In this document: in pieces, positions 4,854-24,676 of the stretch | Numbering within the stretch: position 1 is the stretch's first letter | Layout of the letters: the number at the start of each line of letters is the position of its first letter | NCBI GenBank assembly: GCA_964484395.1 | Contig: CAZAFM010000003.1 | Location: 1-41,302, forward strand | DNA length: 41,302 nucleotides | Source: an uncultured Campylobacterales bacterium | GTDB lineage: Bacteria; Campylobacterota; Campylobacteria; Campylobacterales; CAZAFM01 | Direction of reading: 5' to 3' | Position numbers and translations under genes: made by a program | The notes under the pieces: generated by a model | The model's input: only the letters and a program-made list of their open reading frames with translations | What the model was told of the DNA's origin: nothing | Databases searched by the model: none

Positions 4854-4937
4854 TGTTACATATAGTTACATATAAGAAGAATTTACACCACTAATCAAGG
4901 TTCATATCTTCTTTATTGTGTGTTGGTTTGATACAAT
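4854..4937 (+). promoter_or_regulatory. icd promoter region: tandem TGTTACA/AGTTACA direct repeat and extended -10
   Basis: TGTTACA-tat-AGTTACA at 4854-4870 (10-bp period) and TGaTACAAT at 4929-4937. Confidence 0.5.
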
Positions 4938-5025
4938 ACTGAATATAAACATTTTGAGTGGAGGCAATTAGCCAAACAATCTTAGGAGTGTTTATAAAAC
5001 TCAATTTATCAAGGAAGGAAGAAAA

Positions 5026-6483
5026 ATGGCAAAGACAACAATTACAGTAGCAAGAGGTGATGGTATTGGTCCTGAGATTATGGATGCAAGTATTAGAGTG
5101 CTTGAGGCTGCTGGTGCTGAGGCAGAGTGGGAGCATATTGATGTAGGAGAGAAAGTTTATCTTTCTGGAAATACTTCTGGTATTGGTCAAGAAGCTTGGG
5201 ATTCTATCAAAAAAAATAAAATTCTTTATAAAGCACCTATCACAACACCTCAAGGTGGTGGATACAAAAGCCTAAATGTAACAATAAGAAAAACTTTAGG
5301 TCTATACGCTAATGTTCGTCCTGCTATAGCTTACGATCCATTTATACCTTCAAGATATCCAGGTATGAATGTTGTAACTATTCGTGAAAATGAAGAAGAT
5401 TTGTACGCTGGAATAGAGCATCAGCAGACTCCTGAGGTAACTCAGTGTCTAAAGCTAATAACTAGACCTGGTTGTGAAAGAATATCAAAATACGCATTTG
5501 AATATGCAAGAGCGTATGGTAGAAAAAGAATTACTTGTATGATAAAAGATAACATCATGAAGATTACTGATGGTCTTTTTGTAAAAGTATTCTATGAAGT
5601 AGCGAAAGAGTATCCTGATATTCAAGCTGATGATTGGATTATTGATATTGGTATGGCAAAGCTAGTTGACGCTCCAGAAGATTTTGATATGGTTCTTATG
5701 CCAAACCTATATGGTGATGTTGCAACTGATATTCTAGGGCTTATGACTGGGTCTGTTGGTATTGCTCCGGGTGCAAATGTTGGTGATGATATTGCTATGT
5801 ATGAAGCAATTCACGGCTCTGCTCCAAGACATGCAGGTCAGAACAAAGCTAACCCTTCAGGTCTATTACTCTCTGGTGTTATGATGATGGTTCAAGTAGG
5901 TCAACCACAAGTTGCTGAGAAAGTTCACAACGCATGGCTTAAAACTATAGAAGATGGTATAGTAACTTATGACCTTGCTAGAAAACTAAAAGCACAAGGT
6001 AAAGAGCATACTGAAGTGGGAACTAAAGAGTTTGCTGATGCAATTATTGAAAGAATTGGTCAAGAGCCTTCAACTCTAAAACCTGTAAGATATGACAAAT
6101 GGATTCAGATTAAAAAACCTGAACTTACAAATGTAAGAAGCCAAAAAATGGAACTAATTGGTGTAGATATCTTTACAAGAGATGATTGTGATGCAAACAC
6201 AATAGGTGATAAACTAGTTGAGATTGCAAAAGATACAGGATTAGAACTTAAGATGATCTCTAATAGAGGACAAAAAGTATATCCAAGCGGCCACCCTGAA
6301 ACTTTCTTAACAGATCATTGGAGATGCAGATATTATGCTAATAACCAAGGTGATGTTATCAAAAACTCTGATATTACAGATATGATGAACAGAATCTCTG
6401 ATGCTGGTATTGAGGTTATAAAAACGGAGAACCTATATAAGTTAGAAGGTGAGAGATCATACTCTCTAGGACAAGGTGAGTAA
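5026..6483 (+). CDS. icd: Isocitrate dehydrogenase, oligomeric type with C-terminal extension (Thermus/alphaproteobacterial-like)
   Basis: GDGIGPEI, KAPITTP, SLNVTIRK, IRENEEDLY, KDNIMK, PNLYGD, EAIHGSAP, ANP; about 120-aa C-terminal domain (LKMISNRG..HWRCRY..GQG); strong RBS. Confidence 0.93.
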   Translation: MAKTTITVARGDGIGPEIMDASIRVLEAAGAEAEWEHIDVGEKVYLSGNTSGIGQEAWDSIKKNKILYKAPITTPQGGGYKSLNVTIRKTLGLYANVRPAIAYDPFIPSRYPGMNVVTIRENEEDLYAGIEHQQTPEVTQCLKLITRPGCERISKYAFEYARAYGRKRITCMIKDNIMKITDGLFVKVFYEVAKEYPDIQADDWIIDIGMAKLVDAPEDFDMVLMPNLYGDVATDILGLMTGSVGIAPGANVGDDIAMYEAIHGSAPRHAGQNKANPSGLLLSGVMMMVQVGQPQVAEKVHNAWLKTIEDGIVTYDLARKLKAQGKEHTEVGTKEFADAIIERIGQEPSTLKPVRYDKWIQIKKPELTNVRSQKMELIGVDIFTRDDCDANTIGDKLVEIAKDTGLELKMISNRGQKVYPSGHPETFLTDHWRCRYYANNQGDVIKNSDITDMMNRISDAGIEVIKTENLYKLEGERSYSLGQGE

Positions 6484-6537
6484 AAAGCTCCCAAATAGTA
6501 AAACTAATTTTTTAGATAATATTTGGTAACATAACCG

Positions 6538-6566
6538 TCTCCCTCCCTTAAAGGAGGGGAGATTTT
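6538..6566 (+). terminator. Imperfect GC-rich hairpin with short T tract between icd and sbtA
   Basis: TCTCCCTCCCT-taa-AGGAGGGGAGA (about 10 bp including one G-U pair, plus one mismatch) followed by TTTT. Confidence 0.5.
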
Positions 6567-6583
6567 CTAGAGGAGGGTGCGCT

Positions 6584-7564
6584 ATGAGCATTGACTTGAT
6601 TATCCAAAATTTTCTTAATCCCCCAGTTTTATTCTTTTTTCTCGGGATGCTGGCAGTCTTTTTAAAGTCAGAACTAACAATACCGCAACCACTTCCAAAA
6701 CTTTTTTCACTATTTTTGATAATAGCTATCGGTCTTCATGGGGGGTACGAGCTTTCAAAAAGTGGTCTAAATGCAACAGTTCTTACAGGTCTAGGTCTTG
6801 CAGTTTTTATGGCATCTATTGTTCCAATATATAGTTATTTTATTTTGCGTGCAAAACTTGATACCTATAATGCCGTAGCGCTAGCTGCAACATATGGCTC
6901 TATTAGTGCTGTTACATTTATCACTGGTGTTACTTATTTGCAGACACTTGGGGTTGATTATGGTGGTTATATGGTTGCTGCTATGACACTCATGGAGTCA
7001 CCAGCTATTATCATAGGGCTAGTATTTGCTGCTATGTTTGCAAACAAGGGTGAGGGCAAAGAGAAGAAAAAGACAGATTGGGCTGAGATTGGTAGGGAAG
7101 CATTTTTAAATCCTTCAGTATATCTTTTAATGGGTGCTCTAGTGATTGGTATTTTAACAGGAGAGAGAGGTTGGAGCTCTATGGAACCAATGTATGGTGA
7201 CCTCTTTAAAGGTATGTTGGCTCTTTTCTTATTGGATATGGGTCTAGCAGCTGCTAAAAGAATCGGGGAGCTAAAAAAGCTTGGTTCATTTTTGATTATA
7301 TTTGCTATAGTTATGCCTATAGTAAATGCTTGTCTATCCATAGCTCTAGCGTACTTATTTGGACTATCAAAAGGTGATGCTTTTTTGCTTTCACTACTAA
7401 GTGCAAGTGCTTCATATATTGCTGTCCCAGCAGCTATGAGGCTATCAGTTCCTGAGGCAAATCCAGGTATATATCTACCTCTTAGTTTAGCAGTTACCTT
7501 CCCTTTCAACATATCTTTAGGTATACCACTATATTATTTTATAATTAACGGAATATGGGGGTAA
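6584..7564 (+). CDS. sbtA: SbtA-family sodium-dependent bicarbonate transporter (DUF897)
   Basis: About 10 TM segments; family motifs IGLHGG, ATYGSISAVTF, LMESPAII, FLLDMG, SASYIAVPAA, TFPFNI. Confidence 0.92.
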   Translation: MSIDLIIQNFLNPPVLFFFLGMLAVFLKSELTIPQPLPKLFSLFLIIAIGLHGGYELSKSGLNATVLTGLGLAVFMASIVPIYSYFILRAKLDTYNAVALAATYGSISAVTFITGVTYLQTLGVDYGGYMVAAMTLMESPAIIIGLVFAAMFANKGEGKEKKKTDWAEIGREAFLNPSVYLLMGALVIGILTGERGWSSMEPMYGDLFKGMLALFLLDMGLAAAKRIGELKKLGSFLIIFAIVMPIVNACLSIALAYLFGLSKGDAFLLSLLSASASYIAVPAAMRLSVPEANPGIYLPLSLAVTFPFNISLGIPLYYFIINGIWG

Positions 7565-7567
7565 GCT

Positions 7568-7858
7568 ATGGTAAGTATGAAAAAAGTGGAGATTATATTT
7601 GAAGCAGTCTATCTAACTAGACTGCTAGAACTTTTTAAGAGACATAATATCAAAGGCTATACTCTTATAAGAGAGATAGAGGGCTGTGGAGCACATGGTC
7701 TTATGTCTGCTGATGTAGGATTTGATGTCTCAAGTAATGACTATCTCTATACAGTTTGTGAAAATGATAAATTTGAAGAGATGAAGGAGGAGATTCGCTC
7801 CTTTACACATAAATACGGTGGAAAATGTTTCGTAACTGATGCAATGATGCTTAAATAG
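7568..7858 (+). CDS. sbtB: SbtB-like P-II family regulator
   Basis: MKKVEII..GYT....GCGAHG..GGKCFVTD P-II-like pattern; 3 bp downstream of sbtA. Confidence 0.88.
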   Translation: MVSMKKVEIIFEAVYLTRLLELFKRHNIKGYTLIREIEGCGAHGLMSADVGFDVSSNDYLYTVCENDKFEEMKEEIRSFTHKYGGKCFVTDAMMLK

Positions 7859-7867: not shown

Positions 7868-9019
7868 GTGCATAAAGATTTTAACTACTCAGGATTAAAA
7901 CTTGGTATTATAGGTGGAGGACAACTCGGAAAAATAATGTCTTCTGAAGCAAAAAAGATGGGCTTTGTCGTCACCATCTTAGATCCTACTTACAACTCAC
8001 CTGCAGCGCAAGTCTCAGATAAACAGATAGTTGGTGGGTTTTATGATAAAGAGAAGCTTGAGCAACTAGTCCAAGAGAGTGATGTAACAACTTTTGAGCT
8101 CGAAAATGTAGATACCACCATCTTAAAAGAGCTCTATGATAATGGTCATCACATCCACCCCTCTCCATATATTATAAGCCTCATACAGAACAAATATGAA
8201 CAAAAAAGACTTCTACAAAGCAGAGGTATCCCTGTCCCAAAGCTAAAAAATGTAGTTAATAAAGATGATCTTGAAAGTTTTGGTTTTCCGGTAGTTCAAA
8301 AAGCAAAGACTGGTGGATATGATGGTAGAGGAGTTTTTATACTCAAATCAAAAGATGATATTGTAAACTCTCTAGAGGGAGATAGCTTCATAGAGGAGGT
8401 CGTGGATATTGACAAAGAGCTTGCTATTATTGTCGCTAGAAATATAGAAGGGGAAGTCTCTTGCTATCCTGTTGTAGAGATGCTATTTGATGAGCGTGTC
8501 AATATATGTGATAGTGTAATGGCTCCTGCGCGCATTAGTAGTGAGGTTGAGCAAAAAGCAAAAGATATTGCAAAAAAAGCTATAAAAGTACTTGATGGGG
8601 TTGGTATTTATGGAGTTGAACTCTTTTTAACAAAAAATGGTGAAGTTTTGTTGAATGAAATCGCGCCAAGACCTCACAACTCCGGTCACTACACACTTGA
8701 AGGGTGCATGACATCTCAGTTTGAGCAGATAATTAGAGCTGTCACAAACCTCCCTCTAGGTTCGACAAGGCTAATCTCCCCTTCAGTTATGGTCAATCTA
8801 CTAGGAGAGAGTGGTTATGAGGGTGAGCCGGTTATTGAGGGACTTCATGAGGTTCTAGAGATTGAGGGGCTATCTTTTCATTTTTATGGTAAGTCTTTTA
8901 CAAAACCTTTTAGGAAGATGGGACATATTACTGTTTTGGATAGCTCTTTAGATGAAGCACTAAGAAAAGCCCTTGAAGCAAAAGAGATTTTAAAAGTCAA
9001 AGGGAGTAAAAGAGTATGA
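7868..9019 (+). CDS. purK: N5-carboxyaminoimidazole ribonucleotide synthetase (ATP-grasp, uses HCO3-)
   Basis: [34 protein letters not shown]; GTG start. Confidence 0.95.
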
Positions 9020-9540
9020 GTAAGCCATTAGTAGGAATTATTATGGGGAGTGACTCTGACCTTCTTGTTATGCAACAAGCAGTGGATATATGTGAGGAGT
9101 TTAGGATTGAGTATGAGGTAAGTATAGTTTCAGCCCATAGGACACCAGAGCGTTTAGTTAAATACGCTAAAAGTGCAGAAAATAGAGGCTTAAGAGTGAT
9201 TATTGCAGGAGCAGGAGGTGCGGCTCATCTACCCGGAATGGTAGCTTCTTTAACTCCTCTACCAGTAATTGGTGTTCCAGTTAAAGGCTCATCACTTGAA
9301 GGAATGGATTCCCTGCTCTCAATTGTTCAGATGCCAGGAGGTGTTCCGGTTGCAACTGTGGCGATAAATGGAGCCAAAAATGCTGGAATATTAGCTGCTC
9401 AGATGATTGGGATTAAAAGTCTTGAAATCCGCAAAAAAGTCAAAGCTTACAAGAAAGAGCTACTAAACCAAGTAGAGGCTAAGATAGAGAGGCTAGAGAG
9501 TATGCCTTCTTCTAAGTACCTACAAGAAATGGGACACTAG
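9016..9540 (+). CDS. purE: Class I N5-CAIR mutase
   Basis: [24 protein letters not shown] (class I signature), QMPGGVPV; ATGA overlap with purK. Confidence 0.96.
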
Positions 9541-9833
9541 TCCCTAGGACTCTCACTTCCATCAAACTGAATTTTAACAGGGTTCCTTGAGAGTAGTTTG
9601 TGGATATCCACATCCTCATCACTATCTTCAGGACGAAGTATACTGTGGATAATGATCTCATTACCATAATCAATCGCTTCAAAGTAGTGCTTAAAGCAGA
9701 ACTCTTGATTCATTCTGCATTCAATAACTCTAGCCTTCATTAGGGCTTCTTCTTTATCTTCAAACTCTAGATTATTTACAAAGTTACTCTTTTTAAAGCA
9801 ACTACACTCTTTTTCAATGATGATTTTATACAT
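9537..9833 (-). CDS. Small hypothetical protein with CxC...CxxH motif
   Basis: 98 aa, [17 protein letters not shown]; AAAGGA RBS; stop codon shares CTAG with the purE stop. Confidence 0.75.
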
Positions 9834-9886
9834 CTTTTATTCCTTTCATCTATAAATCTCCTTTCAGTCGATTATTTATACACCTT

Positions 9887-10011
9887 TAGGAAGTGAATTC
9901 CTAGCCTTAAGCTAACGCTGAGTTCTCTTCGGCAGAGAGCCCTCACGACCTTGTAGCTCTAATGAAACGCTTAAGATTTTTATATTTATTTGTGTTTTTG
10001 AACTGAGCGTT
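9887..10011. ncRNA. Candidate structured RNA / cis-regulatory element between dabA and the 98-aa gene
   Basis: GC-richer than other spacers; nested inverted repeats TAGGAA/TTCCTA (9887-9903), CTTAAGC/GCTTAAG (9906-9912 with 9969-9975), and TGAG-TTCTCT-tcggc-AGAGAG-cc-CTCA (9919-9945). No family recognised. Confidence 0.35.
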
Positions 10012-12884
10012 TAATTAAGCTCTTTTATAACCTTGAAGTCACCATCTTCATAAGAGTAGACTTTTTTAGCCTTCTTATCAATGATTATAGGGCGTATCCA
10101 CTCATTTAAGATAAATGTTTTTGCTACTGAGTTTTCCACAGCTTTTCCTACTATCTCAAGAGGTGCTTCCATATAGGTTAACAGTCTAACAGGCTCATGG
10201 TAGGCTTTTCCTTCTAATAAAACTGTTTGAGTAGGAAGACCTATTTTTAAATCACTATAGTTCCCGCTATATACTCCAACCTTAGAAACTATGTTGTGAT
10301 AGACTTTTGAGCCTGCTCCGTATGTGTGATTATCTACAGTTGAGAAGTAGTGCTCTAGATTAATCCACTCACCAACAACAAGAGGTCCATTAAAAATTCT
10401 TGTTAGTATATCTGCATTTTCATTATCAATACTCCAATCATAAGAGTGCATAAAAAGTCGATTATTAAAAGCTAGATGCTTAGTAGCCCTCCTAGGTCCT
10501 GCAAAAACACCCATATTTTGAGCCAACCCCCACTCTGGACGAGTCTCAGACCAGTCTTTAGTTTTTATGTTTAGGTCTTTTTCTGTATGGGTATATGGTA
10601 GTGAGACTACTCTCTCTTGCTTAGAAGATTGAGTAGCCCTATTAAAATCAACTATAATGTTTTTAAACATCTCCATTTCATCACTAGTTAGAATATCTTC
10701 ATCATAGAACTCTATCTTATCTGTTGTAGTGGTGTGAACACCGGGTATGAACTTAGTGCTCTCTGGAATATCTATCCCTTTTTCCTTGATTTTCTCTCTT
10801 ACAGAAGCTGAGTTTGCTATCATACAAAGAGTTCTAGCATTTGGTAAGCTAGAGCTTCCTCCACACGCTCCGCAATCTAGAGCTGATTCAAATGGGTTAT
10901 TATCAGATATACTAGCATGACCTAGAATCAAGGCAAACTGTGGGAAGTTATCTACTTGTCCTATCATGGTTAAATAGTTGTACAAGTAGTGAACCTTCTC
11001 TTCAAGTGTGAAGCCAACTAGTGAGAGCTTGTTTTTTTGAAATTCATAATCTTTTGGGGTGATATGATGCTCTGATGTAAGCTTTTGTAGTGCATCTTCT
11101 GGTATATCTAATACTAGCTCATCACCAAAAACAAGATGTCTCCAAACCTCCTCACACTGCTTTTGTATCGACTCATGAGCTAGATAGTTATGAAGATGCT
11201 CTGAGATAATGTTTATATGTAGTTTTTTGACATAAAACTCTATCTCTGTTTCTGAGAGCTTATCAATAGTAAATGTAGTTTTTGGTTTGATTGGCTTAAG
11301 CTTTTTGAAAAGCTTCTCAGTCTTTTCAGGTGCAAATGTTTTACCAAAAAGGTTAATCCCAAAAATCCAACCTATTGCTTCAACCATGATAAAAGGGGTG
11401 TATGGGTTGTTTTTAAGATCACTTAAGACTTTTTTAGTTGTTTTGTTTATACCTTTTTTGGATTGAAAGCTAATCACACACTCTTTAGGAATCTCAAAAA
11501 CAACATTTTTAGGCTTGATAACTGCTGGGCATAGAAGCTGTTCATGTGCTTTGTCAAACTCAACAAAAGCAATTGGAATACCCAAAAAGCCACCAGCACC
11601 ATAGGTTTTGTATGGACCCTCATTCTCTATATTTCGGCGTATAACTTCTGAGCGAACATCTAGGCAAAAAGTAGCTGAAGCAACTGACTTCTCCTCCTCT
11701 TTTGGCTCAAACTCAGTGACATCATCAACAAACCTTTTTATATATGTGTCTTCAAGTGACTTGAGCCAGATATAGCCCTCTTCATCTCTTAGTTTTTTGA
11801 TAACTGAAGCTAGGTCTATTAGGGGTAGCTTACTTTGAAGAACCTCCTCGCAGTGCTGAATCTGAAAAGCATCTAGACTTAGCTCATTAGTAATGTGCTG
11901 CAAGAGTACATTGTCTGTCTTTTCGTCGTTTTCTAGTGCATCAAGACATCTTCCATATAGTCTGTTTTTGTCTTTTAAGAGCTTCAAAATGACCTCACTT
12001 CTCTTCTCTTGTGCATATACTTCAAAGATTTTGAAACTACAAATCGCTCTGTTTCTAACTGCTTCAAGCTCATAATAGAGTCTAATAGCCATATACTCTA
12101 TAAGTGAGGAAGGATGTTGTTGTTGTGAAAAATAATCAGGGTCTTCTGAGCGGTACTTGATAAACCCTGTCCAACCATGAAGCTTGTGTAGATGGGTAAT
12201 GAAGTAGGCTTTGATATCTGTAACTTGAAGTTTATTAAGAGCCTCTTCTACAAAAGAGTTTGCATCTTTTTCATAAGTGAAGTTTTCATAAAGTTTAAAA
12301 GCCTCAAACATACCTCTTTGTCGGTTTGGCATAGTCATTGTTGTTTGGTCTTCATCTAAGAAGCGAGATATAAACTCAATGATGTTTTTTTGAATCTTGC
12401 TTCTCTCATCAGTATCAAAAAGTACATCATTAATCTCATATAGTGTCATATTTTTTGTGAGACTATCTAGCCACCTTTGTTTATCATTGTAGATTGAGTT
12501 CTTTTCTAGGTGTGAATAAAGTTCAGTATCAGCCTCTTCTTGTTTATATAAAAATTTTCTTCTAAGGTCATCCCATTGTGGGCTAACCTCCATCATAAAT
12601 TTTTTGATAATCTCTATAGGAATATCAAAGCCTAAATCACTTAGGTTATTATTGATATTTTCTTCTAAAATTTTTTCATCTATTTTTCCTTGATTGTATA
12701 GCTCCATAAAATAAGAGGAGTCCATATATGTTCTACCACCAAATATCTGCTGAGCCCTTTTTAGCCCCTCTTTAAAATGTAAATCCTCAAATCCTTTAAG
12801 TGGGTTGTGATGGATAAATGAGCCTATTGGCCAGTAGTGTGGAAATGTATCCTTGATTGAATCTAGTTTTTGTGCGACGCTCAT
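10011..12884 (-). CDS. dabA: DabA (DUF2309) beta-carbonic-anhydrase-like cytoplasmic subunit of a DIC-accumulating complex
   Basis: WPIGSFIHHNPL N-terminus; Zn-ligand motifs FCLDVRSE (C,D), LGHAS (H), LDCGACGG (C); DWSETRPEWGLA; HEPVRL. Confidence 0.95.
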   Translation of the reverse strand: MSVAQKLDSIKDTFPHYWPIGSFIHHNPLKGFEDLHFKEGLKRAQQIFGGRTYMDSSYFMELYNQGKIDEKILEENINNNLSDLGFDIPIEIIKKFMMEVSPQWDDLRRKFLYKQEEADTELYSHLEKNSIYNDKQRWLDSLTKNMTLYEINDVLFDTDERSKIQKNIIEFISRFLDEDQTTMTMPNRQRGMFEAFKLYENFTYEKDANSFVEEALNKLQVTDIKAYFITHLHKLHGWTGFIKYRSEDPDYFSQQQHPSSLIEYMAIRLYYELEAVRNRAICSFKIFEVYAQEKRSEVILKLLKDKNRLYGRCLDALENDEKTDNVLLQHITNELSLDAFQIQHCEEVLQSKLPLIDLASVIKKLRDEEGYIWLKSLEDTYIKRFVDDVTEFEPKEEEKSVASATFCLDVRSEVIRRNIENEGPYKTYGAGGFLGIPIAFVEFDKAHEQLLCPAVIKPKNVVFEIPKECVISFQSKKGINKTTKKVLSDLKNNPYTPFIMVEAIGWIFGINLFGKTFAPEKTEKLFKKLKPIKPKTTFTIDKLSETEIEFYVKKLHINIISEHLHNYLAHESIQKQCEEVWRHLVFGDELVLDIPEDALQKLTSEHHITPKDYEFQKNKLSLVGFTLEEKVHYLYNYLTMIGQVDNFPQFALILGHASISDNNPFESALDCGACGGSSSLPNARTLCMIANSASVREKIKEKGIDIPESTKFIPGVHTTTTDKIEFYDEDILTSDEMEMFKNIIVDFNRATQSSKQERVVSLPYTHTEKDLNIKTKDWSETRPEWGLAQNMGVFAGPRRATKHLAFNNRLFMHSYDWSIDNENADILTRIFNGPLVVGEWINLEHYFSTVDNHTYGAGSKVYHNIVSKVGVYSGNYSDLKIGLPTQTVLLEGKAYHEPVRLLTYMEAPLEIVGKAVENSVAKTFILNEWIRPIIIDKKAKKVYSYEDGDFKVIKELN

Positions 12885-15269: not shown

Positions 15270-15497
15270 TTATTCCTCCTTAGCCTGCGCCATAACCATT
15301 GAGATACAGCCTCTATTAAGTAAGTCTGTGCAGACATAGACACATAGAGCGCACCCCTTGCATCTATCACTATCAACCCAAGATGTATTGTTCTCTTTAT
15401 CGAACATAAGCGTATTTGCTTCTGGACAATAAAGTGTACACATATTGCATTTATGCTCAGCACATTTGTCCGAATCGACTTTTGCTATATAATACAT
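15270..15497 (-). CDS. forE: Ferredoxin-like epsilon subunit of five-subunit 2-oxoacid:ferredoxin oxidoreductase (copy 1)
   Basis: CxxxxCxxCxxxCP and CxxCxxCxxxC cluster motifs; last gene of a D-A-B-G-E order. Confidence 0.85.
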   Translation of the reverse strand: MYYIAKVDSDKCAEHKCNMCTLYCPEANTLMFDKENNTSWVDSDRCKGCALCVYVCTDLLNRGCISMVMAQAKEE

Positions 15498-15500
15498 AGT
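15270..15500 (-). repeat. Direct repeat copy 1 (partner 23691-23921)
   Basis: 15286-15500 is identical to 23707-23921 (215 bp); three synonymous differences in the last five codons. Confidence 0.95.
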
Positions 15501-15511
15501 AATCCTTTCTT

Positions 15512-17122: not shown

Positions 17123-17137
17123 GGTTTTCCCCTTTTC

Positions 17138-18328
17138 TTATAGTTTTAGATCTGATTCAACACCAAGTGTGTCATAGATCTCTTTCATGATTAGCTCAAC
17201 AGGTAGTGTCATACCACCAAACACTCTAGGTCCTTCTATAACAATTCCACTATTAGGAATAGCAGCTTTTACCTCTTTACATAGCCAGCCAATAATATTG
17301 TGCTCAGGAACTATTAAGTGTTTTGCATTTTTAGTTGCTTCTTGAATCTCTTCAATAGGGAAAGGTCTTATAGATCTAACCTTGATAAAGCCAACACTCA
17401 AATCCTCTTCTTGAGCATATCTATGCGCTTCCCTTGCTTGTGCAGCAGCACATCCAGAAGCAACAAGCATAACTTCAGCATCAGGATTTATCACTTCAAT
17501 TGGACCACCTAGATACTCATATATGTACTTCATAGCTCTTCTGTTTGAATCCCATATCTCTTGTTGCCATACAGCATGTATTAGGTGACTCATAAAGTTT
17601 GATTTCTGAACAGGAGCATCTCTTTGTATTCTAGCAGGAGGTGTCTCATTATCCATAGCAGGAACAGGAGCAGCACTCGGGTCAAATTCGCTTAGTGCCA
17701 TATCTTCAGGTGTCATCTCAACATAGCCTTTAGCATGTGTTACAAAGAAGCCTTCTGTTGCTACAGCAGTTGGTATATATACATCAACTTTTTCTGAGAT
17801 TGCAAATGCAGCTAGAGTCATATCAAATGTATCTTGTTGGTTTTCAGCATGCAGTACTACAGCTCCGCAGTGCATAAGGTATGCCATCTCTATGTTATCA
17901 GGCTGAATAGATAGTGGTGCATTTATAACTCTTGTAAGCACACCTAGGACTGCTGGTATTCTATGTCCAGGCCATGAAGCAATAGCCTCTAAACCTCTAA
18001 GAAGTCCAGGACCTGAAGTTGCAGAAAAGATTCTTACACCAGCTCTTGCTGCACCTGCAACTGCTGACATAGTCCCTAGCTCTTCTTCTGCTCTATAATA
18101 CTCTTTTATGTGACCTTGTGCATATATATCGCCAACAAGGTGCATTACCTCAGATTGTGGTGTAATAGGATAAGCGATTGCCATATCAACGCTTGAGCGT
18201 TTAACAGCTTCAGCCATAGCTTGTGCACCTGTAATGAAGCACTTTTCTCTTGGGGCTTCTTGTAGAAGATATTTAGCATCTACTAGTTTTTTCTCTATTT
18301 TTGGTGTTGAGGTTACATTTTCACTCAT
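17138..18328 (-). CDS. forA: 2-oxoacid:ferredoxin oxidoreductase alpha subunit (For type)
   Basis: YPITPQSE, ATSGPG, EGFFVTH, RPFP. The 2-oxoglutarate assignment rests on the DABGE order known from Hydrogenobacter for genes. Confidence 0.85.
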   Translation of the reverse strand: MSENVTSTPKIEKKLVDAKYLLQEAPREKCFITGAQAMAEAVKRSSVDMAIAYPITPQSEVMHLVGDIYAQGHIKEYYRAEEELGTMSAVAGAARAGVRIFSATSGPGLLRGLEAIASWPGHRIPAVLGVLTRVINAPLSIQPDNIEMAYLMHCGAVVLHAENQQDTFDMTLAAFAISEKVDVYIPTAVATEGFFVTHAKGYVEMTPEDMALSEFDPSAAPVPAMDNETPPARIQRDAPVQKSNFMSHLIHAVWQQEIWDSNRRAMKYIYEYLGGPIEVINPDAEVMLVASGCAAAQAREAHRYAQEEDLSVGFIKVRSIRPFPIEEIQEATKNAKHLIVPEHNIIGWLCKEVKAAIPNSGIVIEGPRVFGGMTLPVELIMKEIYDTLGVESDLKL

Positions 18329-18338
18329 CTTAATCTCC

Positions 18339-19052
18339 TTATTCAGTTTCAGTTACTATCTCATCTTTTTGAGCCATGATGAGACTTCTATACTCTCCAT
18401 AGTCAAGAACACTGATAGACTCATAGTTCTCATAATCCATAGAGGAATTTTCAGGTGGTAGTTTTTTCTCCCACTTGATACCTAGTTTATCTCTCTCCTC
18501 GATGAGTATATTTTTAAATTTTACTATATCATCTGCATGCAAGTCACGGATAGAAGCCATTGCCTCTTCATGTCCCATATAAGCACAGAGTGCTATAGTG
18601 TAACAATCAGCCCCAGCTCGAATCATTCTTAAAGATAAGTTTGCATAGTGGCAGTGAACACCTACAAAAACACACGCCTTTATTTTATTCTCAATAATTG
18701 TTAAATTCGGGTGATTTGGATTGATTTCTGCTTTAACATCAATCTTTGGATATTTTGGTCTATAATCAGGCATTGGAATAATTTTGCAGTTTGGTATCTC
18801 AGATGCCAACTCCAAAATCGCTGCTGCTTTTTCTGCAACATCTGCTTTCCAATCCCACAACACTTGTGGACCTGGGAAGATAGTTGGATTCTCTCTAGTA
18901 AGAAGTGCTCTTGCAGCATCTCTCATCGCCTCTTCTTCTTCTACTTGGTTACCATACAGCAGAGCTTTTCCCTCTTCAGAGAGCTCAACTCCCATAGATA
19001 CTGCTGATTTAGGCATATAGCCAACTGGACCTACTGATATTTTTTCTTTCAT
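18339..19052 (-). CDS. forD: Delta subunit of five-subunit oxidoreductase (For type)
   Basis: PTIFPGPQVL, DYRPKYPKI, INPNHPNLTI, FVGVHCHYAN; paralogue of 23068..23637. Confidence 0.8.
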   Translation of the reverse strand: MKEKISVGPVGYMPKSAVSMGVELSEEGKALLYGNQVEEEEAMRDAARALLTRENPTIFPGPQVLWDWKADVAEKAAAILELASEIPNCKIIPMPDYRPKYPKIDVKAEINPNHPNLTIIENKIKACVFVGVHCHYANLSLRMIRAGADCYTIALCAYMGHEEAMASIRDLHADDIVKFKNILIEERDKLGIKWEKKLPPENSSMDYENYESISVLDYGEYRSLIMAQKDEIVTETE

Positions 19053-19252: not shown

Positions 19253-20209
19253 CTACTCTTGCATTTTTAGAAAAGAGAAATTTTTACACATATTTGATAC
19301 ATCATCTTCTATATTAAAACCAATACATATTAGAATAGAGGGTTTATCGTACTCAGCAAGCTCCTCATAGGATATATCACCAAAAGCGTAGTTTATAATT
19401 AAGGGCTGTGGTATGTCCTCTAGTTTTACAACACCCTTAACTCTAAAAATAGATTTAGGAAGCGCTTTTAAAAGTCTTTCTAGCTCTTCAAAGCTACATG
19501 GACTCTGAATATAGAGTGGTTTTTGGGTGATTGAATCTCTAGTGGTATGGTCATGATGGGTATGGTCTTTTGCTATGTCTTGAAGTTCATCAACCCTATA
19601 TATTCCTTCAAAAAGCTCTTTTTCTACATAACCTTTTGAGGTGCAACTCAAAATAGTGTTATTAAATACTGTCTTTCCTGTGAGGTTGTTTTTGATAGTA
19701 AACTCTTTATGTATATCCATAACCTCTTTTTTAAGCAACTCTAGGCTATCTTCTTTGATGAGGTCAATCTTGTTGATGATGATTATGTTAGAGCCACCAA
19801 GTTGATATTTAGCTGTTTGATTATCCCTATATATAGCAAAGTTTTTAGCATCTACTACACAGATAATCCCTTCTACTATGATGCCAAGGTTTTTTAGAGA
19901 TAAAAATATAGGAAAAGGCTCAGAGGCACCTGATGTCTCAACAAAAATAACCTCTGGATTATAGTTTTGGATTATCTCTATTACGCCTCTTTCAAACTCT
20001 TCTGCAAGTTTGCAACAAATACACCCCTCTGAAATTTCAAGAACTTCACTATGCACATTTTTTAGGATTTTACCATCTATGCCAACCTCTCCAAATTCAT
20101 TGACTATAATTGCAACCTTTTTGTCTTTGAAATGCTCTCTTACTGTATTTGTAAGCATTGTTGACTTCCCAACACCTAAAAATCCAGTAATTACAAAAGC
20201 GTGTATCAT
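19253..20209 (-). CDS. COG0523/CobW-family G3E GTPase metallochaperone
   Basis: TGFLGVGKS (Walker A), NEFGE, GCICC metal motif, VETSG, NKID, His-rich HTHHDH, RVKG. Confidence 0.93.
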   Translation of the reverse strand: MIHAFVITGFLGVGKSTMLTNTVREHFKDKKVAIIVNEFGEVGIDGKILKNVHSEVLEISEGCICCKLAEEFERGVIEIIQNYNPEVIFVETSGASEPFPIFLSLKNLGIIVEGIICVVDAKNFAIYRDNQTAKYQLGGSNIIIINKIDLIKEDSLELLKKEVMDIHKEFTIKNNLTGKTVFNNTILSCTSKGYVEKELFEGIYRVDELQDIAKDHTHHDHTTRDSITQKPLYIQSPCSFEELERLLKALPKSIFRVKGVVKLEDIPQPLIINYAFGDISYEELAEYDKPSILICIGFNIEDDVSNMCKNFSFLKMQE

Positions 20210-20294: not shown

Positions 20295-20996
20295 CTATCT
20301 CTTTGGAGCATCAAGAATCTGCTTAAGTCCTACCTCTTTGCACCACTGCTCAGTCAAATCATAAGCTGATGATGCTGTTTGTAGGTTTTTGTCAATAAGT
20401 TCCATCTTCTTCTTGAACTTCTTCTCAATAGCTGAGTCAAGTGTAGCTGTACCACCAGAAGCGGTGTATTTTTTCAAGAATCTATCTTTTATACCCTCTT
20501 CAATAGCTGGTTTATCAACAGTACCTAGTGCTCCAAAAAGTGCACCTAGCATCGCCATATTAGTAGCTAGCTCTGTTCCTGCAAGATCAATAGCGAACTT
20601 TGTAAAGTCTTTTGTAAGCACTTTAACATTCAAGTCATCTAATCTTTTCTTATCAGAGGCTGTTAATAGCTCAGTGTCACTATTGATAATTACAAGACCA
20701 TCCTCTTTGATACCTGAGTAAAAAGGCATTGTATAGGATTTACCCATTGTGATAACTTGTGGATGATATACCATTATAATGTCAGGATATATAACTTCAC
20801 CCCTATCATATACTGGAACAGTTGCAATCCTAGCATAGCTCTCTGAGGGTGCCATTCTCTTTTCAGCACCAAAAAAAGGATTTGAAACTGCATAGTAACC
20901 TACTGTGTCTGCTGCAGTAGCTGCGATATGGGCAGCTGTAACTGCTCCTTGCCCACCAAGTGCAGGCATTCTGATTTTAATTGAATCTTTTGCCAT
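20295..20996 (-). CDS. porG: 2-oxoacid:ferredoxin oxidoreductase gamma subunit (Por type)
   Basis: ALGGQGAVT, FFGAEKRMAP; start moved to MAKDSIK at 20996, overlapping the porB stop. Confidence 0.85.
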   Translation of the reverse strand: MAKDSIKIRMPALGGQGAVTAAHIAATAADTVGYYAVSNPFFGAEKRMAPSESYARIATVPVYDRGEVIYPDIIMVYHPQVITMGKSYTMPFYSGIKEDGLVIINSDTELLTASDKKRLDDLNVKVLTKDFTKFAIDLAGTELATNMAMLGALFGALGTVDKPAIEEGIKDRFLKKYTASGGTATLDSAIEKKFKKKMELIDKNLQTASSAYDLTEQWCKEVGLKQILDAPKR

Positions 20997-21865
20997 TATA
21001 AAAGTCCCTCTTCTTTGCATTTTGCTATATTTTTTTCTGCTTCAGGTGAAAGATGTCTAAAAAACTGAAACCTATCTTTATCTCTAGCCTTCATCTCTCC
21101 TAAGCCCTCATTTGCACTCAAGCCTATCTCAAGTATACAAGGAGTGTGTAGGTTTACAAAACTAGGACCTACCTCTCTAGCTGTCAAAATCGCTTCTTTA
21201 ATCACTTTTGCAACTTGCTTAGGGTTCGACCCTGTTAAGTTAGCAGAGTAGTGGCATCCAGATGTTACTGCTATATCCCATAAAGGAACTTTGTCAAACT
21301 GCTTACCTTTAGGTGCCATTTTAAAAACATGACCCTTTGCAGTCGCACCACTCTCTTGACCACCAGTATTTGCATATACTTCATTATCAAAACAGATTGT
21401 AGTTATCTTCTCTTGTCTGAAAAAAGACTGGAGTGTGTAATCAAGTCCTATATCAACAGTAGCACCATCACCAGCAAGAACAACAACATCTTTAGGCTTA
21501 TCAGGAAATCTCCACTCTAGAACTCTTTTTATTCCAGATGCTACTGAGTTTTGGTTTCCAAATAGTGAGTGCACAGTATGGAGTGCAATATGTGGGAACA
21601 TTAGTGAAGTACAACCTGTTGAGTTGACTATAATAGTCTCTTCTGGATTTGGAAGGGCTGCTAGGACATATCTTATTGTTGCAGCTTCTGGGCATCCTGC
21701 ACAGAGTGAATGCTCTTCTATAATCTCTTTTGAGATAGGTAGCTCATTTATCCCTCTTGGCTTATCTTGTTTACAAGCCCATGTAGCCCTCTCCTCAAGA
21801 TCTATAATCTCCTGAGGCATAATATCTCTAAATTCTGGGTTGATTTTATACATATCATAAGACAT
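20996..21865 (-). CDS. porB: 2-oxoacid:ferredoxin oxidoreductase beta subunit (Por type)
   Basis: CAGC, NSTGC, GDGA...DNEVYANTGGQES, TPC. Confidence 0.85.
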   Translation of the reverse strand: MSYDMYKINPEFRDIMPQEIIDLEERATWACKQDKPRGINELPISKEIIEEHSLCAGCPEAATIRYVLAALPNPEETIIVNSTGCTSLMFPHIALHTVHSLFGNQNSVASGIKRVLEWRFPDKPKDVVVLAGDGATVDIGLDYTLQSFFRQEKITTICFDNEVYANTGGQESGATAKGHVFKMAPKGKQFDKVPLWDIAVTSGCHYSANLTGSNPKQVAKVIKEAILTAREVGPSFVNLHTPCILEIGLSANEGLGEMKARDKDRFQFFRHLSPEAEKNIAKCKEEGLL

Positions 21866-21866
21866 C

Positions 21867-23066
21867 TTAAGCTCCTTTACCAGTGTTTACTACTTCCATA
21901 ACTTCAGCGATAATCGCTTCAGCAGGCATACTCATACCACCGGCGACTCTTGGTCCAGCGATAACCTCTGCATCACACTTTCTATATAGTGATGCTTTGA
22001 CTTCGTTTGCAAGCCAACCAACTACATTTAGCTCAGGTACAAATGCATACTTAACACCCTTCATAGCTTCAAGAAGCTCATCATGTGGAAAAGGTCTTAT
22101 AGTTCTTAACTTGATAACTTTAGTTTTAATTCCCAGTTTTTCTAGCTCTCTTTTTGCTTCTTTTGCTTGGTTTGATGCTGTTCCACATGCAATTAGTGCA
22201 ATCTCTGCATCATCTTCTCCTACAGTGTGGACTAGTCCACCTAGGAAGTGTTTTGTGTATGGTATTGATCTCTCTACTGCTGATCTTATCTCCCACTGCC
22301 AGCTAGCATGCGTTGCATAAGATATGTAGTTTGACTTCATTACAAATGGGTCTCTTAAAAATCTACCAGGTGACATCTCAGCATCTATTGGAGGAAGTGG
22401 AGCTTTGTATGGTTCATAAGGTTTAAGTGCAATATCATCACTTGGAATCTCAACAGCTTCTCTAGTGTGAGATACAAAGAACCCATCAATAACTGTAATA
22501 ATAGGAACATGAACATCTGGTTTCTCTGCAACCTCAAAACCAGCAATAGTCATATCAAATAGTTCTTGCACATTCTCAGCATACCAGATAATACAACCTG
22601 TCTCTAGTAGATAGAAAACCTCTAAGTTATCTGGCTGAATTGTAAGTGGTGAGTTGATACCTCTTGCCATAAGTATTAGTTGAACTGGAATTCTAGTTCC
22701 TGACCACATAGCAAAGTTTTCCATAGCTCTCAAAGTTCCAGGTCCAGAAGTGGTCGTAATAGTTCTAGCTCCAGCCATTGCACAGCCTGCCACTTCAGAC
22801 ATTACACCAAACTCGTTTTCACCTCTAAAGTATGTACCAACATAGCCATCTCTCCACAACTCTCCTATAAGGTGAGCTCCCTCTGATTGTGGTGTGATAG
22901 GATATGAAACAGAAGCATCAACAGTACATCGTTTAACCGCTTCTTGTAGGATTTCTGATCCTGTCATGAAGTGTTTTGTTCTAGGCGCCTCAAATAGCAT
23001 ATAATCGGCTGTCACTAGAGTCTGTCCGCTCCAATTTTTTGTATCTGTCATTTTATTTCTACTCAT
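21867..23066 (-). CDS. porA: 2-oxoacid:ferredoxin oxidoreductase alpha subunit (Por type)
   Basis: YPITPQSE, TTSGPG, DGFFVSH, RPFP. The pyruvate assignment rests on the EDABG order known from Hydrogenobacter por genes. Confidence 0.85.
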   Translation of the reverse strand: MSRNKMTDTKNWSGQTLVTADYMLFEAPRTKHFMTGSEILQEAVKRCTVDASVSYPITPQSEGAHLIGELWRDGYVGTYFRGENEFGVMSEVAGCAMAGARTITTTSGPGTLRAMENFAMWSGTRIPVQLILMARGINSPLTIQPDNLEVFYLLETGCIIWYAENVQELFDMTIAGFEVAEKPDVHVPIITVIDGFFVSHTREAVEIPSDDIALKPYEPYKAPLPPIDAEMSPGRFLRDPFVMKSNYISYATHASWQWEIRSAVERSIPYTKHFLGGLVHTVGEDDAEIALIACGTASNQAKEAKRELEKLGIKTKVIKLRTIRPFPHDELLEAMKGVKYAFVPELNVVGWLANEVKASLYRKCDAEVIAGPRVAGGMSMPAEAIIAEVMEVVNTGKGA

Positions 23067-23067
23067 T

Positions 23068-23637
23068 TTATCTCCCTAGCTCTGCTTTTACTTCTTTGGC
23101 AATTTTAATAAACTTCTCAAGCTCTTCAGCGTGTTGGTCTCTCAAAGTAGCCATTGCATCCTCGTGTCCTGATAAGCCACAAATCGCGATAGTATAACAA
23201 TCAGTCTCAGCACGCACTATTTTGAGTGCGACATTAGCATAGTGACAGTGGACACCAACAAATATTGCTGCTTTAATATCGTTATGCCAAATTGTTAAGT
23301 TCGGATGATTTGGGTTTATCTCAACTTCTGGGTTAATTTTTGGATATTTTGGTCGGTAATCATACATTGGAATCATCTTTGCACCAAGTATGTCAGCTAT
23401 CTCTTTAACCAAAGTAGCTTTCTTTTTTGCTTCTTCACTCCAACCATAGAGCACTTGCGGTCCTGGGAAGATTGTTGCATTATCTCTTGTAAGCATAACC
23501 TTCGCAACCTCTCTCATTGCAACCTCTTCATCAACCACCTCTTCTAATAGAAGTGCTTTTCCTTCTGGTGGTGTGATGATACCTTCATAAGTAGCCACCG
23601 GATATGGTGAGTAATACGCTGGGCCAATGTTTGCCAT
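23068..23637 (-). CDS. porD: Delta subunit of five-subunit oxidoreductase (Por type)
   Basis: TIFPGPQVL, DYRPKYPKI, NPNHPNLTI, FVGVHCHYAN. Confidence 0.8.
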   Translation of the reverse strand: MANIGPAYYSPYPVATYEGIITPPEGKALLLEEVVDEEVAMREVAKVMLTRDNATIFPGPQVLYGWSEEAKKKATLVKEIADILGAKMIPMYDYRPKYPKINPEVEINPNHPNLTIWHNDIKAAIFVGVHCHYANVALKIVRAETDCYTIAICGLSGHEDAMATLRDQHAEELEKFIKIAKEVKAELGR

Positions 23638-23690
23638 AAATTCTCCTATAAAGTAATTTTCACATTAATAATGAGCTAAAGCTTTTTAGC

Positions 23691-23918
23691 TTACTCTTCC
23701 TTAGCTTGCGCCATAACCATTGAGATACAGCCTCTATTAAGTAAGTCTGTGCAGACATAGACACATAGAGCGCACCCCTTGCATCTATCACTATCAACCC
23801 AAGATGTATTGTTCTCTTTATCGAACATAAGCGTATTTGCTTCTGGACAATAAAGTGTACACATATTGCATTTATGCTCAGCACATTTGTCCGAATCGAC
23901 TTTTGCTATATAATACAT
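23691..23918 (-). CDS. porE: Ferredoxin-like epsilon subunit (copy 2; protein identical to copy 1)
   Basis: Same 75-aa sequence as 15270..15497; first gene of the E-D-A-B-G order. Confidence 0.85.
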   Translation of the reverse strand: MYYIAKVDSDKCAEHKCNMCTLYCPEANTLMFDKENNTSWVDSDRCKGCALCVYVCTDLLNRGCISMVMAQAKEE

Positions 23919-23921
23919 AGT
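23691..23921 (-). repeat. Direct repeat copy 2 (partner 15270-15500)
   Basis: 225 of 228 coding bases identical to copy 1; offset 8421 bp. Confidence 0.95.
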
Positions 23922-24082
23922 TCCACTCCATGTTGTAAATTAATCTACTAAAACTCCACTAAAAAGAAGCAAGCTAGAGCAGATCTTCGTAATGCTACTA
24001 AATAGATAAAATTGTGTTGAGGTCATATACACTTCATTAATGCATAGTAGCTCAACTTCAAGACTATCTACTTTGAAATAAG

Positions 24083-24162
24083 GTTATACCAAAATTTACT
24101 TTAGAATTATTTTAGACAACCTATTTTGTGTAAAATCTTGGTGTTTATTACAATCTATTACC
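24083..24162 (-). promoter_or_regulatory. Putative porE promoter: extended -10 and degenerate 10-bp-period repeat
   Basis: Minus-strand TGgTATAAC at 24091-24083; GGTAATA-gat-TGTAATA at 24162-24146. Confidence 0.4.
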
Positions 24163-24178
24163 AATAAAAAGGCAGAAC

Positions 24179-24676
24179 CTAGAGAGCTTTTAGTGCATCC
24201 TCATAGTCTGGCTCTTCCGTGATTTCTGGCACTATCTGCTTGTAAGCAACTTTACCATCTGTATCAATAACTAGTATTGCTCTACAAGTAAGACCAGCTA
24301 GAGGACCATCAGTTAGTAGCATACCGTATTTTTGTGCAAACTCTTTATTTCTAAAATCAGAACAAACTGTAAGGTTTTCTATACCCTCAGTGGTGCAAAA
24401 TCTAGTTGCCGCAAAAGGAAGATCCATAGAGATAATAATAACCTCTGCATTACTAACTGAAGCTGCTTTTTCATTAAACTTCCTAGCTTCAGCTGCGCAA
24501 ACAGGAGTATCTAGTGAAGGGACTGCTACAAGAACTTGCTTTTTATCACCCTTGCCACCGATTTTCTTATCACTAAGATTACTTGCCACTAGTGTTACTT
24601 CAGGTGCACTATCACCTACATTTACTTCACTACCACCTATGTTTACTGTTTTGCCTTTTAGCTTTGTCGTTACCAT
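24179..24676 (-). CDS. tpx: Thiol peroxidase (atypical 2-Cys peroxiredoxin)
   Basis: VPSLDTPVC, ISMDLPFA..RFC, EPDYE; start moved to MVTTKLKG at 24676 behind an AAGGAG RBS. Confidence 0.95.
   Translation of the reverse strand: MVTTKLKGKTVNIGGSEVNVGDSAPEVTLVASNLSDKKIGGKGDKKQVLVAVPSLDTPVCAAEARKFNEKAASVSNAEVIIISMDLPFAATRFCTTEGIENLTVCSDFRNKEFAQKYGMLLTDGPLAGLTCRAILVIDTDGKVAYKQIVPEITEEPDYEDALKAL

Follow-up and report, generated by a model that had tools for sequence, protein, structure and literature searches.

We examined a stretch of 41,302 nucleotides (hereafter the window) from an uncultured Campylobacterales bacterium (GenBank assembly GCA_964484395.1, contig CAZAFM010000003.1), in which about 20 kb carry genes for carboxylating enzymes and inorganic-carbon transporters. 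The region probably consists of two separately inherited inorganic-carbon supply modules, which lie tail to tail beside icd, the isocitrate dehydrogenase (IDH) gene, in an autotroph using the reductive tricarboxylic acid (rTCA) cycle. The first would be a supercluster, porEDABG-COG0523/forDABGE/dabB-dabC-dabA-orf98, which joins two five-subunit 2-oxoacid:ferredoxin oxidoreductases (OFORs) to a DAB1-type pump. The second, sbtA-sbtB-purK-purE, would place a Na+/bicarbonate symporter and its PII-like regulator before a bicarbonate-consuming purine enzyme. We separate the two because the sbt half and the por/dab/for group occur apart in other genomes.

The window corresponds to contig C3 in an assembly of 140 contigs and 2.13 Mb; this genome is 98% complete and the sole member of its GTDB family in the genome set searched. 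Its host belongs to the Campylobacterota, is an rTCA autotroph and has Sulfurovum metagenome-assembled genomes (MAGs) as nearest named relatives, with DabA 59-71% identical. The gene map is based on a listing of open reading frames (ORFs) and on Pfam and NCBIfam profile searches. An earlier note on this DNA had named icd-sbtA-sbtB-purK-purE, converging on porEDABG-COG0523-forDABGE-dabB-dabX-dabA; all of these genes are present, in that order and on those strands. The note left two genes unnamed, orf98 (9537-9833) and a thiol peroxidase gene, tpx (24179-24760), and the end that it gave to the cluster, 24676, falls inside the latter. The flanks hold unrelated genes (flagellar, cell-shape, a PAS-GGDEF-EAL response regulator, chemotaxis), and the cluster therefore has clear limits, between which the plus-strand and minus-strand halves converge tail to tail.

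Results

The two halves of the region occur apart in related genomes

The earlier note had viewed the 20 kb as one module, and comparison with relatives did not support this view. SbtA is present in 3 of the 301 genomes of our order sample, each time in the order sbtA-sbtB-purK-purE. In two genomes with this order (G002 and G228) sbtB lies directly 3' of sbtA, and neither gave a match to DabA or to the OFOR delta subunit. Conversely, among five relatives that carry the por/dab/for genes, including DAB1, SbtA was found in two and not found in three. Adjacency of icd and sbtA was seen in one relative only (G303), at a contig end.

DAB1 genes remain beside five-subunit OFOR clusters through rearrangement

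Whether the clustering is incidental was approached with the OFOR delta subunit as query, which makes no assumption on DAB, and the flanks of each match were compared with the window proteins. Matches to delta came from 2 of 301 genomes sampled across the order, 2 of 32 of one family (f19), 2 of 401 sampled across the phylum and 12 of 171 of a second family (f15); these samples overlap and together hold 15 distinct delta-bearing genomes. In 12 of the 15 (G000, the source genome, G175, G305, G525, G582, G589, G608, G626, G634, G652, G662 and G666), dabB-dabC-dabA-orf98 lies at most 2.3 kb from a por or for cluster, a count of related genomes and not of independent events. The linkage of DAB to OFOR genes is thus not incidental. 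Two of the exceptions are G574, in which forD stands at a contig end, and G643, with contigs of 1-2 kb; the third is considered in the Discussion.

The linked loci show at least five gene layouts. In the window, dab is co-directional with and follows forE, with a forE-dabB gap of 50 nt. The dab genes converge on COG0523 in G305 and four Sulfurovum MAGs, converge on forE in G608 and, with two unrelated genes between, in G525, diverge from porE in G175 and G582, and are sandwiched between por and for in G589, G626, G634, G652, G662 and G666. Adjacency of DAB and OFOR genes across so many rearrangements argues for selection on the linkage. In the three samples searched with both queries, a close DabA (54-67% identical) occurs exactly in the delta-bearing genomes. 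A DabA search brought up five more loci in Sulfurovum MAGs, and these have the same neighbours. The genome of Candidatus Sulfurimonas marisnigri has homologues of both forA and dabC. In a PorA tree the f19 rows nest among f15 rows (G305 with G608, support 94/93; G175 with G567, 89/83), which agrees with the horizontal spread of Campylobacterota five-subunit OFORs proposed in a preprint (bioRxiv 10.64898/2026.09.02.748891).

Two five-subunit OFORs appear to share one ferredoxin sequence

Both OFOR clusters, each on the minus strand, hold all five subunit genes of the Hydrogenobacter/Aquificota type, as the earlier note had recognized: alpha, beta, gamma, a PF02552 delta and a 2x[4Fe-4S] epsilon. 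Our labels follow the Hydrogenobacter/Aquifex naming, in which delta is the CO_dh-like subunit and epsilon the ferredoxin. The por cluster (20295..23918) consists of porE (23691..23918; a 75-residue 2x[4Fe-4S] ferredoxin by its translation), porD (23068..23637; a CO_dh-like delta of 189 residues, PF02552), and, by Pfam, porA (alpha, 21867..23066), porB (beta, 20996..21865) and porG (gamma, 20295..21020). The for cluster (15270..19052) consists of forD (18339..19052; a CO_dh-like delta of 237 residues, PF02552), forA (alpha, 17138..18328; PF01855 and PF17147), forB (beta, 16211..17122; PF02775), forG (gamma, 15512..16210; PF01558) and forE (the epsilon ferredoxin, 15270..15497, by translation and NCBIfam).

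For Aquifex aeolicus, in-gel activity and mass spectrometry gave a pyruvate:ferredoxin oxidoreductase (POR, there called PFOR) in the order epsilon-delta (21.3 kDa)-alpha (45.1 kDa)-beta-gamma and a 2-oxoglutarate:ferredoxin oxidoreductase (OGOR) in the order delta (27.6 kDa)-alpha (42.7 kDa)-beta-gamma-epsilon (ferredoxin, 9 kDa) (PMC10052474). The por genes of the window, with their 189-residue delta, have the first order and the for genes, with their 237-residue delta, the second. Because gene order and delta size match in this way, we infer that the first cluster encodes POR and the second OGOR. NCBIfam matches, all below cut-offs, do not separate the two, and a forA homologue search returned only close Campylobacterota relatives under generic names that assign no substrate. 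PorA and ForA are 46% identical and fall into separate clades (support 100/100).

The two epsilon genes form a direct repeat of 231 nt (15270-15500 and 23691-23921), 99% identical and 8421 nt apart. The copies have three mismatches, at the 3' end, encode the same protein, and cease to be identical at the gene borders. In G525, two epsilon copies (L028:4781-5002 and L029:6731-6952) differ at about 9% of bases and encode the same 74-residue protein, and in four MAGs the only epsilon gene stands between forG and porD. From these sequences, with identical-protein copies compared in the window and G525, one epsilon appears to serve both POR and OGOR.

Between the clusters lies a gene for a COG0523 (CobW/ZigA-like) GTPase metallochaperone (19253..20209, minus strand; PF02492, 149.6 bits; PF07683, 31.9 bits). 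Its translation has a GCICC motif, which contains the CxCC signature, and a His-rich stretch; all NCBIfam matches, including the ZigA and CobW equivalogs, are below cut-offs. COG0523 follows porG in 11 of 11 relatives whose contig reaches there, and its loci are L002-L004, L006, L018, L026, L028, L038, L040, L042, L043, L045 and L048. It is the constant last gene of the por operon and is tied to por rather than to dab.

The genome encodes two further OFORs, one of the four-subunit porGDAB type (C68) and one of a two-gene KorAB-like type. The KorAB-like locus (C58:11210-14646, L031) has an alpha subunit of 862 residues, of which TIGR03710 matches residues 308-856, so that about 300 N-terminal residues lie outside the OFOR model. 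Hydrogenobacter offers a precedent of OFOR isoenzymes for different O2 levels (Scott 2026, PMC13147460; Molari 2023, PMC10066037), and the presence of ordinary and five-subunit OFORs in one genome would fit it.

The dab genes encode a putative DAB1-type pump followed by a Cys3His protein

Driven by a cation gradient, DAB1 hydrates CO2 that has entered by diffusion and delivers it to the cytoplasm as bicarbonate. On the minus strand of the window, dabA (10011..12884) encodes its beta-carbonic-anhydrase-like cytoplasmic subunit of 957 residues, which PF10070 matches over residues 8-930 at 687.7 bits (cut-off 25). DAB is recognized by the zinc-site residues Cys, Asp, His and Cys (Scott 2026, PMC13147460). 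Aligned with DabA2 (PDB 9rd0; E 2e-79), our DabA carries the Cys/Asp, His and Cys zinc-site motifs at residues 406-413, 655-658 and 669-676; at residue 777 it has the DW(xxx)RPEWGL motif described for the DabA of Thermocrinis albus (PNAS 2026, PMC13684180). The adjoining dabB (13609..15219, minus strand) encodes a NuoL/Mrp-like cation-translocating membrane subunit of 536 residues (PF00361, 153 bits; PF00662), 70-80% identical to relatives' copies. The PF10070 protein, the zinc-site motifs and a PF00361 subunit thus occur together in an apparent operon.

The gene between them, dabX (12881..13612, minus strand), overlaps both dabB and dabA by 4 nt. It encodes a small membrane subunit of 243 residues with six hydrophobic segments (Kyte-Doolittle scan) and no Pfam hit, and we read it as dabC. 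When a profile built from six homologues was run against 1.84 billion cluster representatives, only 33 hits resulted. The distant ones were three PF00361 antiporter-like proteins (E 1e-8 to 1e-4), a 247-residue protein named NADH:ubiquinone oxidoreductase subunit M, and a 251-residue cluster with Aquificota members (E 6e-4); among the best 120 of 551 in the homologue listing there were only Campylobacterota hypothetical proteins. Against PDB sequences the matches were at chance level (best E 0.04). hhalign gave no relation to DabB (probability 0.4%) and a non-significant 5.8% against the 245-residue ORF that takes the corresponding place in a distant DAB operon (L014). We take dabX most likely to encode the DabC of a DAB1-type pump.

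Downstream of dabA, orf98 (9537..9833, minus strand), which overlaps the end of purE, encodes a small soluble protein of 98 residues from no known family; it has no Pfam or NCBIfam hit and in the Atlas matches only Campylobacterota hypothetical proteins. At all relative loci that cover the stretch, a homologue comes immediately after dabA. C10, C12, C46 and H49 (Cys-x-Cys...Cys-x-x-His) are invariant across 12 sequences, and on this pattern the protein probably binds metal. It often has a tandem paralogue, the second copy ending in a Cys/Gly-rich tail (family loci: L002:11084-11637, L003:12877-13430, L004:12970-13562, L029:3919-4668).

DabA also has a second, distant lineage (32-36% identical), with no five-subunit OFOR in its vicinity and, in the one locus checked (L014), with a 245-residue middle gene of its own. 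At four of its loci (L014:11503-11808 and the equivalents in L015-L017) a PII-like gene directly follows dabA, in the slot that orf98 holds in the OFOR-linked lineage. In G175 a PII-like gene lies between dabB and porE (L018:3350-3739). G305 (C19:6299-12402) has a second, distant DabA, an open frame of 1110 residues, about 2.6 kb from its sole beta-carbonic anhydrase gene. The dabA match of G634 (L050, C63, 4121-6989) is in two pieces that abut at 5301-5302, which may be a frameshift or an assembly error. A globin identity for an ORF conserved upstream of dabB in L003 and L004 was not supported; two such ORFs are without a Pfam family.

A bicarbonate transporter operon runs into purK and purE

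The sbt operon is on the plus strand. Its first gene, sbtA (6584..7564), encodes a full-length SbtA-family Na+/bicarbonate transporter of 326 residues (PF05982, 397.2 bits), single-copy in the genome. SbtA is recognized by PF05982 together with 5-10 transmembrane helices (Scott 2026, PMC13147460); ours has PF05982, seven hydrophobic segments and a PII-like next gene, sbtB (7568..7858; 96 residues; PF00543, 54.3 bits), the SbtA partner. Then come purK (7868..9019; PF02222, PF22660 and PF17769), for N5-carboxyaminoimidazole ribonucleotide (N5-CAIR) synthetase, whose reaction takes ATP, and purE (9016..9540; PF00731, 226.4 bits), for N5-CAIR mutase. PurK also consumes bicarbonate (Scott 2024, PMC10880623). 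The genes are closely packed, with gaps of 3 nt (sbtA-sbtB) and 9 nt (sbtB-purK) and an overlap of 4 nt (purK-purE).

In G567 (L042, contig C145, 1035-3137) forE is followed directly by purK-purE in the same orientation, which links these bicarbonate-using purine genes to an OFOR cluster a second time, independently.

Upstream, icd (5026..6483, plus strand) encodes an NADP-type IDH of 485 residues (NF006673, 681.5 bits, cut-off 509) with the domains PF00180 (296.6 bits) and bacterial C-terminal PF18324 (129.9 bits). IDH working in reverse is the carboxylating step from C5 to C6. The genome has one weak paralogue, 31% identical, on C4. The icd-sbtA spacer of 100 nt contains a terminator-like hairpin, called by a scan that found terminators no more often than in shuffled sequence.

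The genome has ATP-citrate lyase and lacks RuBisCO and shell genes

Citrate cleavage, RuBisCO and shell genes, which were among the genome-wide checks proposed in the earlier note, were examined. Citrate-cleavage genes are present on C21, where aclB (PF16114, 279.4 bits) adjoins an AclA-like gene of 605 residues. In this 98%-complete genome RuBisCO (PF00016) and bacterial microcompartment (BMC) shell proteins (PF00936) gave no match, while the controls responded; a CO2-concentrating mechanism (CCM) based on a carboxysome is therefore not indicated.

As the note had said, neither a soluble carbonic anhydrase nor a shell gene lies in the window. In the source genome the alpha, beta and iota classes gave no match, and genome-wide there is one gamma-class candidate, outside the window (C41:319-843, 174 residues), which aligns with PDB 9qev ('Carbonic anhydrase, family 3'; E 3e-56), including the histidine-containing blocks. 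Beta-carbonic anhydrase is found in 28 of the 32 f19 genomes and in 2 of 7 DAB1-bearing relatives (G304 and G305).

Users of bicarbonate in the genome are a two-subunit pyruvate carboxylase, PycAB (PycB, NF006761, 683 bits; PycA-type biotin carboxylase, NF006287, 804 bits), PurK and a second biotin carboxylase. A sodium-pumping oxaloacetate decarboxylase was dropped from this group, as no OadB was found in the genome.

Neighbouring genes and signals

The tpx-like thiol peroxidase gene (24179..24760, minus strand; PF08534, Redoxin, 102.2 bits) lies upstream of porE. It encodes a peroxiredoxin, and its reading as a por subunit was rejected; tblastn found no match in the related loci, so that its position is not conserved. 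A response regulator with PAS, GGDEF and EAL domains, a possible redox- or O2-linked regulator, is encoded at 25003-27123, shortly upstream of tpx and por and in their orientation.

Rfam gave no match in the window at gathering scores; the orf98-dabA spacer had none at E <= 1. Promoter sites numbered 72 against 64.1 +/- 7.9 in shuffled sequence, and terminators 10 against 10.2; with scans no richer than shuffled sequence, these calls cannot define operons.

Independent assemblies bridge most junctions

The stretch is present at 0.73-0.95 of sampled words in four public DNA runs (X1-X4), which belong to two studies of microbial-mat and hypersaline-lake metagenomes, and at 0.29 in a fifth run; among the runs listed for it there is none of RNA. 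Contigs bridge the junctions cobW-forD (X2 record 14, X4 record 29), dabB-forE (X1 record 4, X2 record 12), icd-sbtA-sbtB (X2 record 9) and purE-orf98 (X1 record 2). Among the contigs listed, none bridges 9872-9914 in the orf98-dabA spacer; bins without contig cover (this one, and 23592-24255 in X4) carry no evidential weight. In the spacer at 9844-9999 the contigs of all four runs break or carry unlike ends, and in X1 and X2 the summed contig depth of this bin is raised; strain variation or a short repeat may be the cause. Depth is otherwise flat across the region, contig depth being a poor measure.

One contig (X3 record 21) joins forG-epsilon-porD through the epsilon repeat (window 15286/23706), with 215 nt shared, a path unlike that of the window. 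Given the other junctions, the contig either strayed through a collapsed repeat or reflects tandem duplication of an 8.4-kb unit in some cells. As an alternative to artefact, the 8.4-kb por-COG0523-for unit could possibly amplify or pop out by recombination between the epsilon copies.

Discussion

We favour the reading that the region combines two separately inherited supply modules. On this reading both transporters would raise cytoplasmic bicarbonate when CO2 outside is scarce. Five-subunit OFORs of Hydrogenobacter have been reported to be oxygen-tolerant, and since CO2-poor places tend to have O2, oxygen-tolerant carboxylases and the pump may have been selected, and passed on, together. Bicarbonate would feed PycAB (the C3-to-C4 step), PurK and other ATP-dependent carboxylases directly. 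POR, OGOR and IDH would draw CO2 from dehydration of the pool, uncatalysed or through the gamma-class candidate, and DAB would recapture CO2 that otherwise leaks out. The COG0523 and Cys3His proteins may, at a guess, handle metal, for instance zinc for DabA.

The earlier note had pointed to a puzzle, that the pumps supply bicarbonate while the carboxylases are thought to use CO2. The puzzle is real, and the literature has asked the same: Scott 2024 (PMC10880623), under 'Further questions', takes up how enzymes that use CO2 are served by a pool of bicarbonate. It is softer than the note implied, because part of the carbon demand (PycAB, PurK, the second biotin carboxylase) is for bicarbonate itself and because a candidate interconverting enzyme, the gamma-class protein, exists.

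Several points weigh against the favoured reading. POR, OGOR and IDH use CO2 and not bicarbonate (Scott 2026, PMC13147460), and a CO2-hydrating pump could starve them unless dehydration keeps pace. The gamma candidate scores 204.8 bits with NF050158, below the cut-off of 250; if it is active in the cytoplasm beside DAB, the two would make a futile cycle, and strong co-expression of transporters with a cytoplasmic anhydrase has been useless or harmful in other organisms (Scott 2024, PMC10880623). The DAB locus tags of A. aeolicus (aq_863/866) are far from those of its OFORs (aq_1166-1200) (PMC10052474), and adjacency is therefore not needed for function. G567 has a 14.7-kb contig on which both OFOR clusters and purK-purE occur but dab genes do not. 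The PorA and DabA trees have some groups in common but disagree on the position of G305. Finally, the beta-carbonic anhydrase contrast (not found in 6 of 8 DAB1-bearing genomes versus 3 of 30 f19 genomes without DAB1) is drawn from related genomes and one comparison family, and includes four MAGs of unstated completeness.

A more specific proposal, which we hold tentatively as a possibility, is that por-COG0523/dabB-dabC-dabA-orf98/for is a single transferable cassette in which DAB1 partners oxygen-tolerant carboxylases for the rTCA cycle in oxygenated, CO2-poor water, and which moves between families, its arrival tending to accompany loss of beta-carbonic anhydrase. If this is true, the cassette is a carboxysome-free CO2-concentrating system, with COG0523 and the Cys3His protein as its dedicated metal-handling parts.

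It is rather unlikely that the transporters merely replace a carbonic anhydrase. DAB1 and SbtA would then supply bicarbonate to PycAB, PurK, carbamoyl-phosphate synthetase and acetyl-CoA carboxylase and nothing to POR, OGOR or IDH, and adjacency to the OFORs would reflect a shared transferred island. The missing alpha, beta and iota anhydrases of the source genome fit this, as does the beta class, unmatched in most DAB1-bearing genomes and present in 27 of the 30 f19 genomes without DAB1. E. coli that lacks carbonic anhydrase is rescued by DAB operons, which provide bicarbonate for central metabolism (PMC13684180), sbtAB is joined to the bicarbonate user purKE and not to an rTCA gene, and five-subunit OFORs are scattered and thought to be horizontally spread (bioRxiv 10.64898/2026.09.02.748891), as the nesting of f19 within f15 in the PorA tree also suggests. 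However, the adjacency outlasts at least five rearrangements, more than simple hitch-hiking predicts, and G304 and G305 have DAB1 yet keep beta-carbonic anhydrase. Since PycAB is itself linked to the rTCA cycle, the line between housekeeping and autotrophy is also not sharp.

That icd, sbtAB, purKE, DAB, for, COG0523 and por form one co-regulated 20-kb regulon, induced by low CO2, oxic or high-pH conditions as the earlier note proposed, seems to us improbable. The genes are indeed packed into 20 kb, short spacers between them, and the DNA comes from microbial-mat and hypersaline-lake metagenomes that are perhaps extreme in dissolved inorganic carbon (DIC) or pH. However, the halves converge on opposite strands and cannot share a single transcript, they are found apart in other genomes with icd and sbtA adjacent in one relative only, and neither a regulator gene common to both halves nor a repeated operator was identified. 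The promoter and terminator scans were no richer than shuffled sequence.

Incidental clustering, or an assembly artefact of the epsilon repeat as the X3 contig and the unbridged 9872-9914 might suggest, is very improbable indeed, given that contigs of two runs span each of the junctions cobW-forD and dabB-forE, that by our reasoning the window order is the only linear path using each junction once, that G608 and G567 share the por-cobW-for order with two epsilon copies, and that DAB1 is linked to a five-subunit cluster in 12 of 15 genomes.

Relation to known systems

The earlier note had allowed that its parts were not all new, and the literature goes further than it claimed. In Nitrospirota, Aquificota and Campylobacterota, genes for DIC transporters and for carbonic anhydrases are described as commonly co-located with OFOR and IDH genes (Scott 2024, PMC10880623; Scott 2026, PMC13147460), with the proposal that co-expression could help the carboxylases. 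The general pattern is therefore already published, and the tight link to the five-subunit type is an added detail. Our region resembles those loci in having DAC (= DAB) or Sbt genes within ten genes of OFOR or IDH genes in an rTCA autotroph without a carboxysome. Beyond their main text are the five-subunit OFOR partner, COG0523, the Cys3His gene and sbtAB-purKE; Fig. 3B or Table S4 there may show such loci.

Five-subunit Por and Oor enzymes, close together and patchily distributed, have been reported in Campylobacterota (Molari 2023, PMC10066037; bioRxiv 10.64898/2026.09.02.748891). The two papers describe hemerythrin and globin neighbours of the OFORs; their main text mentions no DabA, DUF2309, NuoL, CobW, bicarbonate or carbonic anhydrase, and Extended Data Fig. 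6 or Table S7 may show dab genes. The OFORs of the window share with those of Hydrogenobacter thermophilus and A. aeolicus the five gene types, the CO_dh-like delta and both gene orders. In contrast to Aquifex, which has distinct Fd2 and Fd3, the window has one epsilon sequence for both enzymes, and it differs from Aquifex-type OFOR loci in having COG0523 after porG and DAB1 beside or between the clusters.

The dab genes resemble the DAB1 of T. albus and Halothiobacillus neapolitanus in their three genes, DabA zinc site and NuoL-like DabB (PMC13684180); the downstream Cys3His gene of the window is not described for those two systems in the text of that paper. The DAB1 of T. albus, an rTCA organism, has a solved structure and rescues E. 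coli without carbonic anhydrase (PMC13684180), and DabAB is abundant in A. aeolicus membranes (PMC10052474). The 'Dabb' of a 2023 brine-pool preprint is an unrelated protein family. As in the cyanobacterial SbtA-SbtB pair, an SbtA-family transporter is followed by a PII-like SbtB; the cyanobacterial pair sits in a carboxysome CCM, whereas here there is no carboxysome or RuBisCO and the operon runs into purK-purE. In the text of the literature we did not find the five-subunit pair as specific partner of DAB, the conserved genes for COG0523 and the Cys3His protein, the shared epsilon or sbtAB-purKE, some of which figures or supplements may show.

How rTCA autotrophs manage at low CO2 is a question that the field itself has posed (Scott 2024, PMC10880623). 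The sbtAB-purKE operon offers a clean small case, in which a transporter is wired to the sole enzyme of a pathway that needs its substrate. Oxygen-tolerant five-subunit Por/Oor enzymes and carboxylase-adjacent DIC transporters, so far discussed apart, form one linked group in Campylobacterota. This bears on the parts needed by an engineered aerobic rTCA pathway, and on where rTCA carbon fixation can run in oxic seawater.

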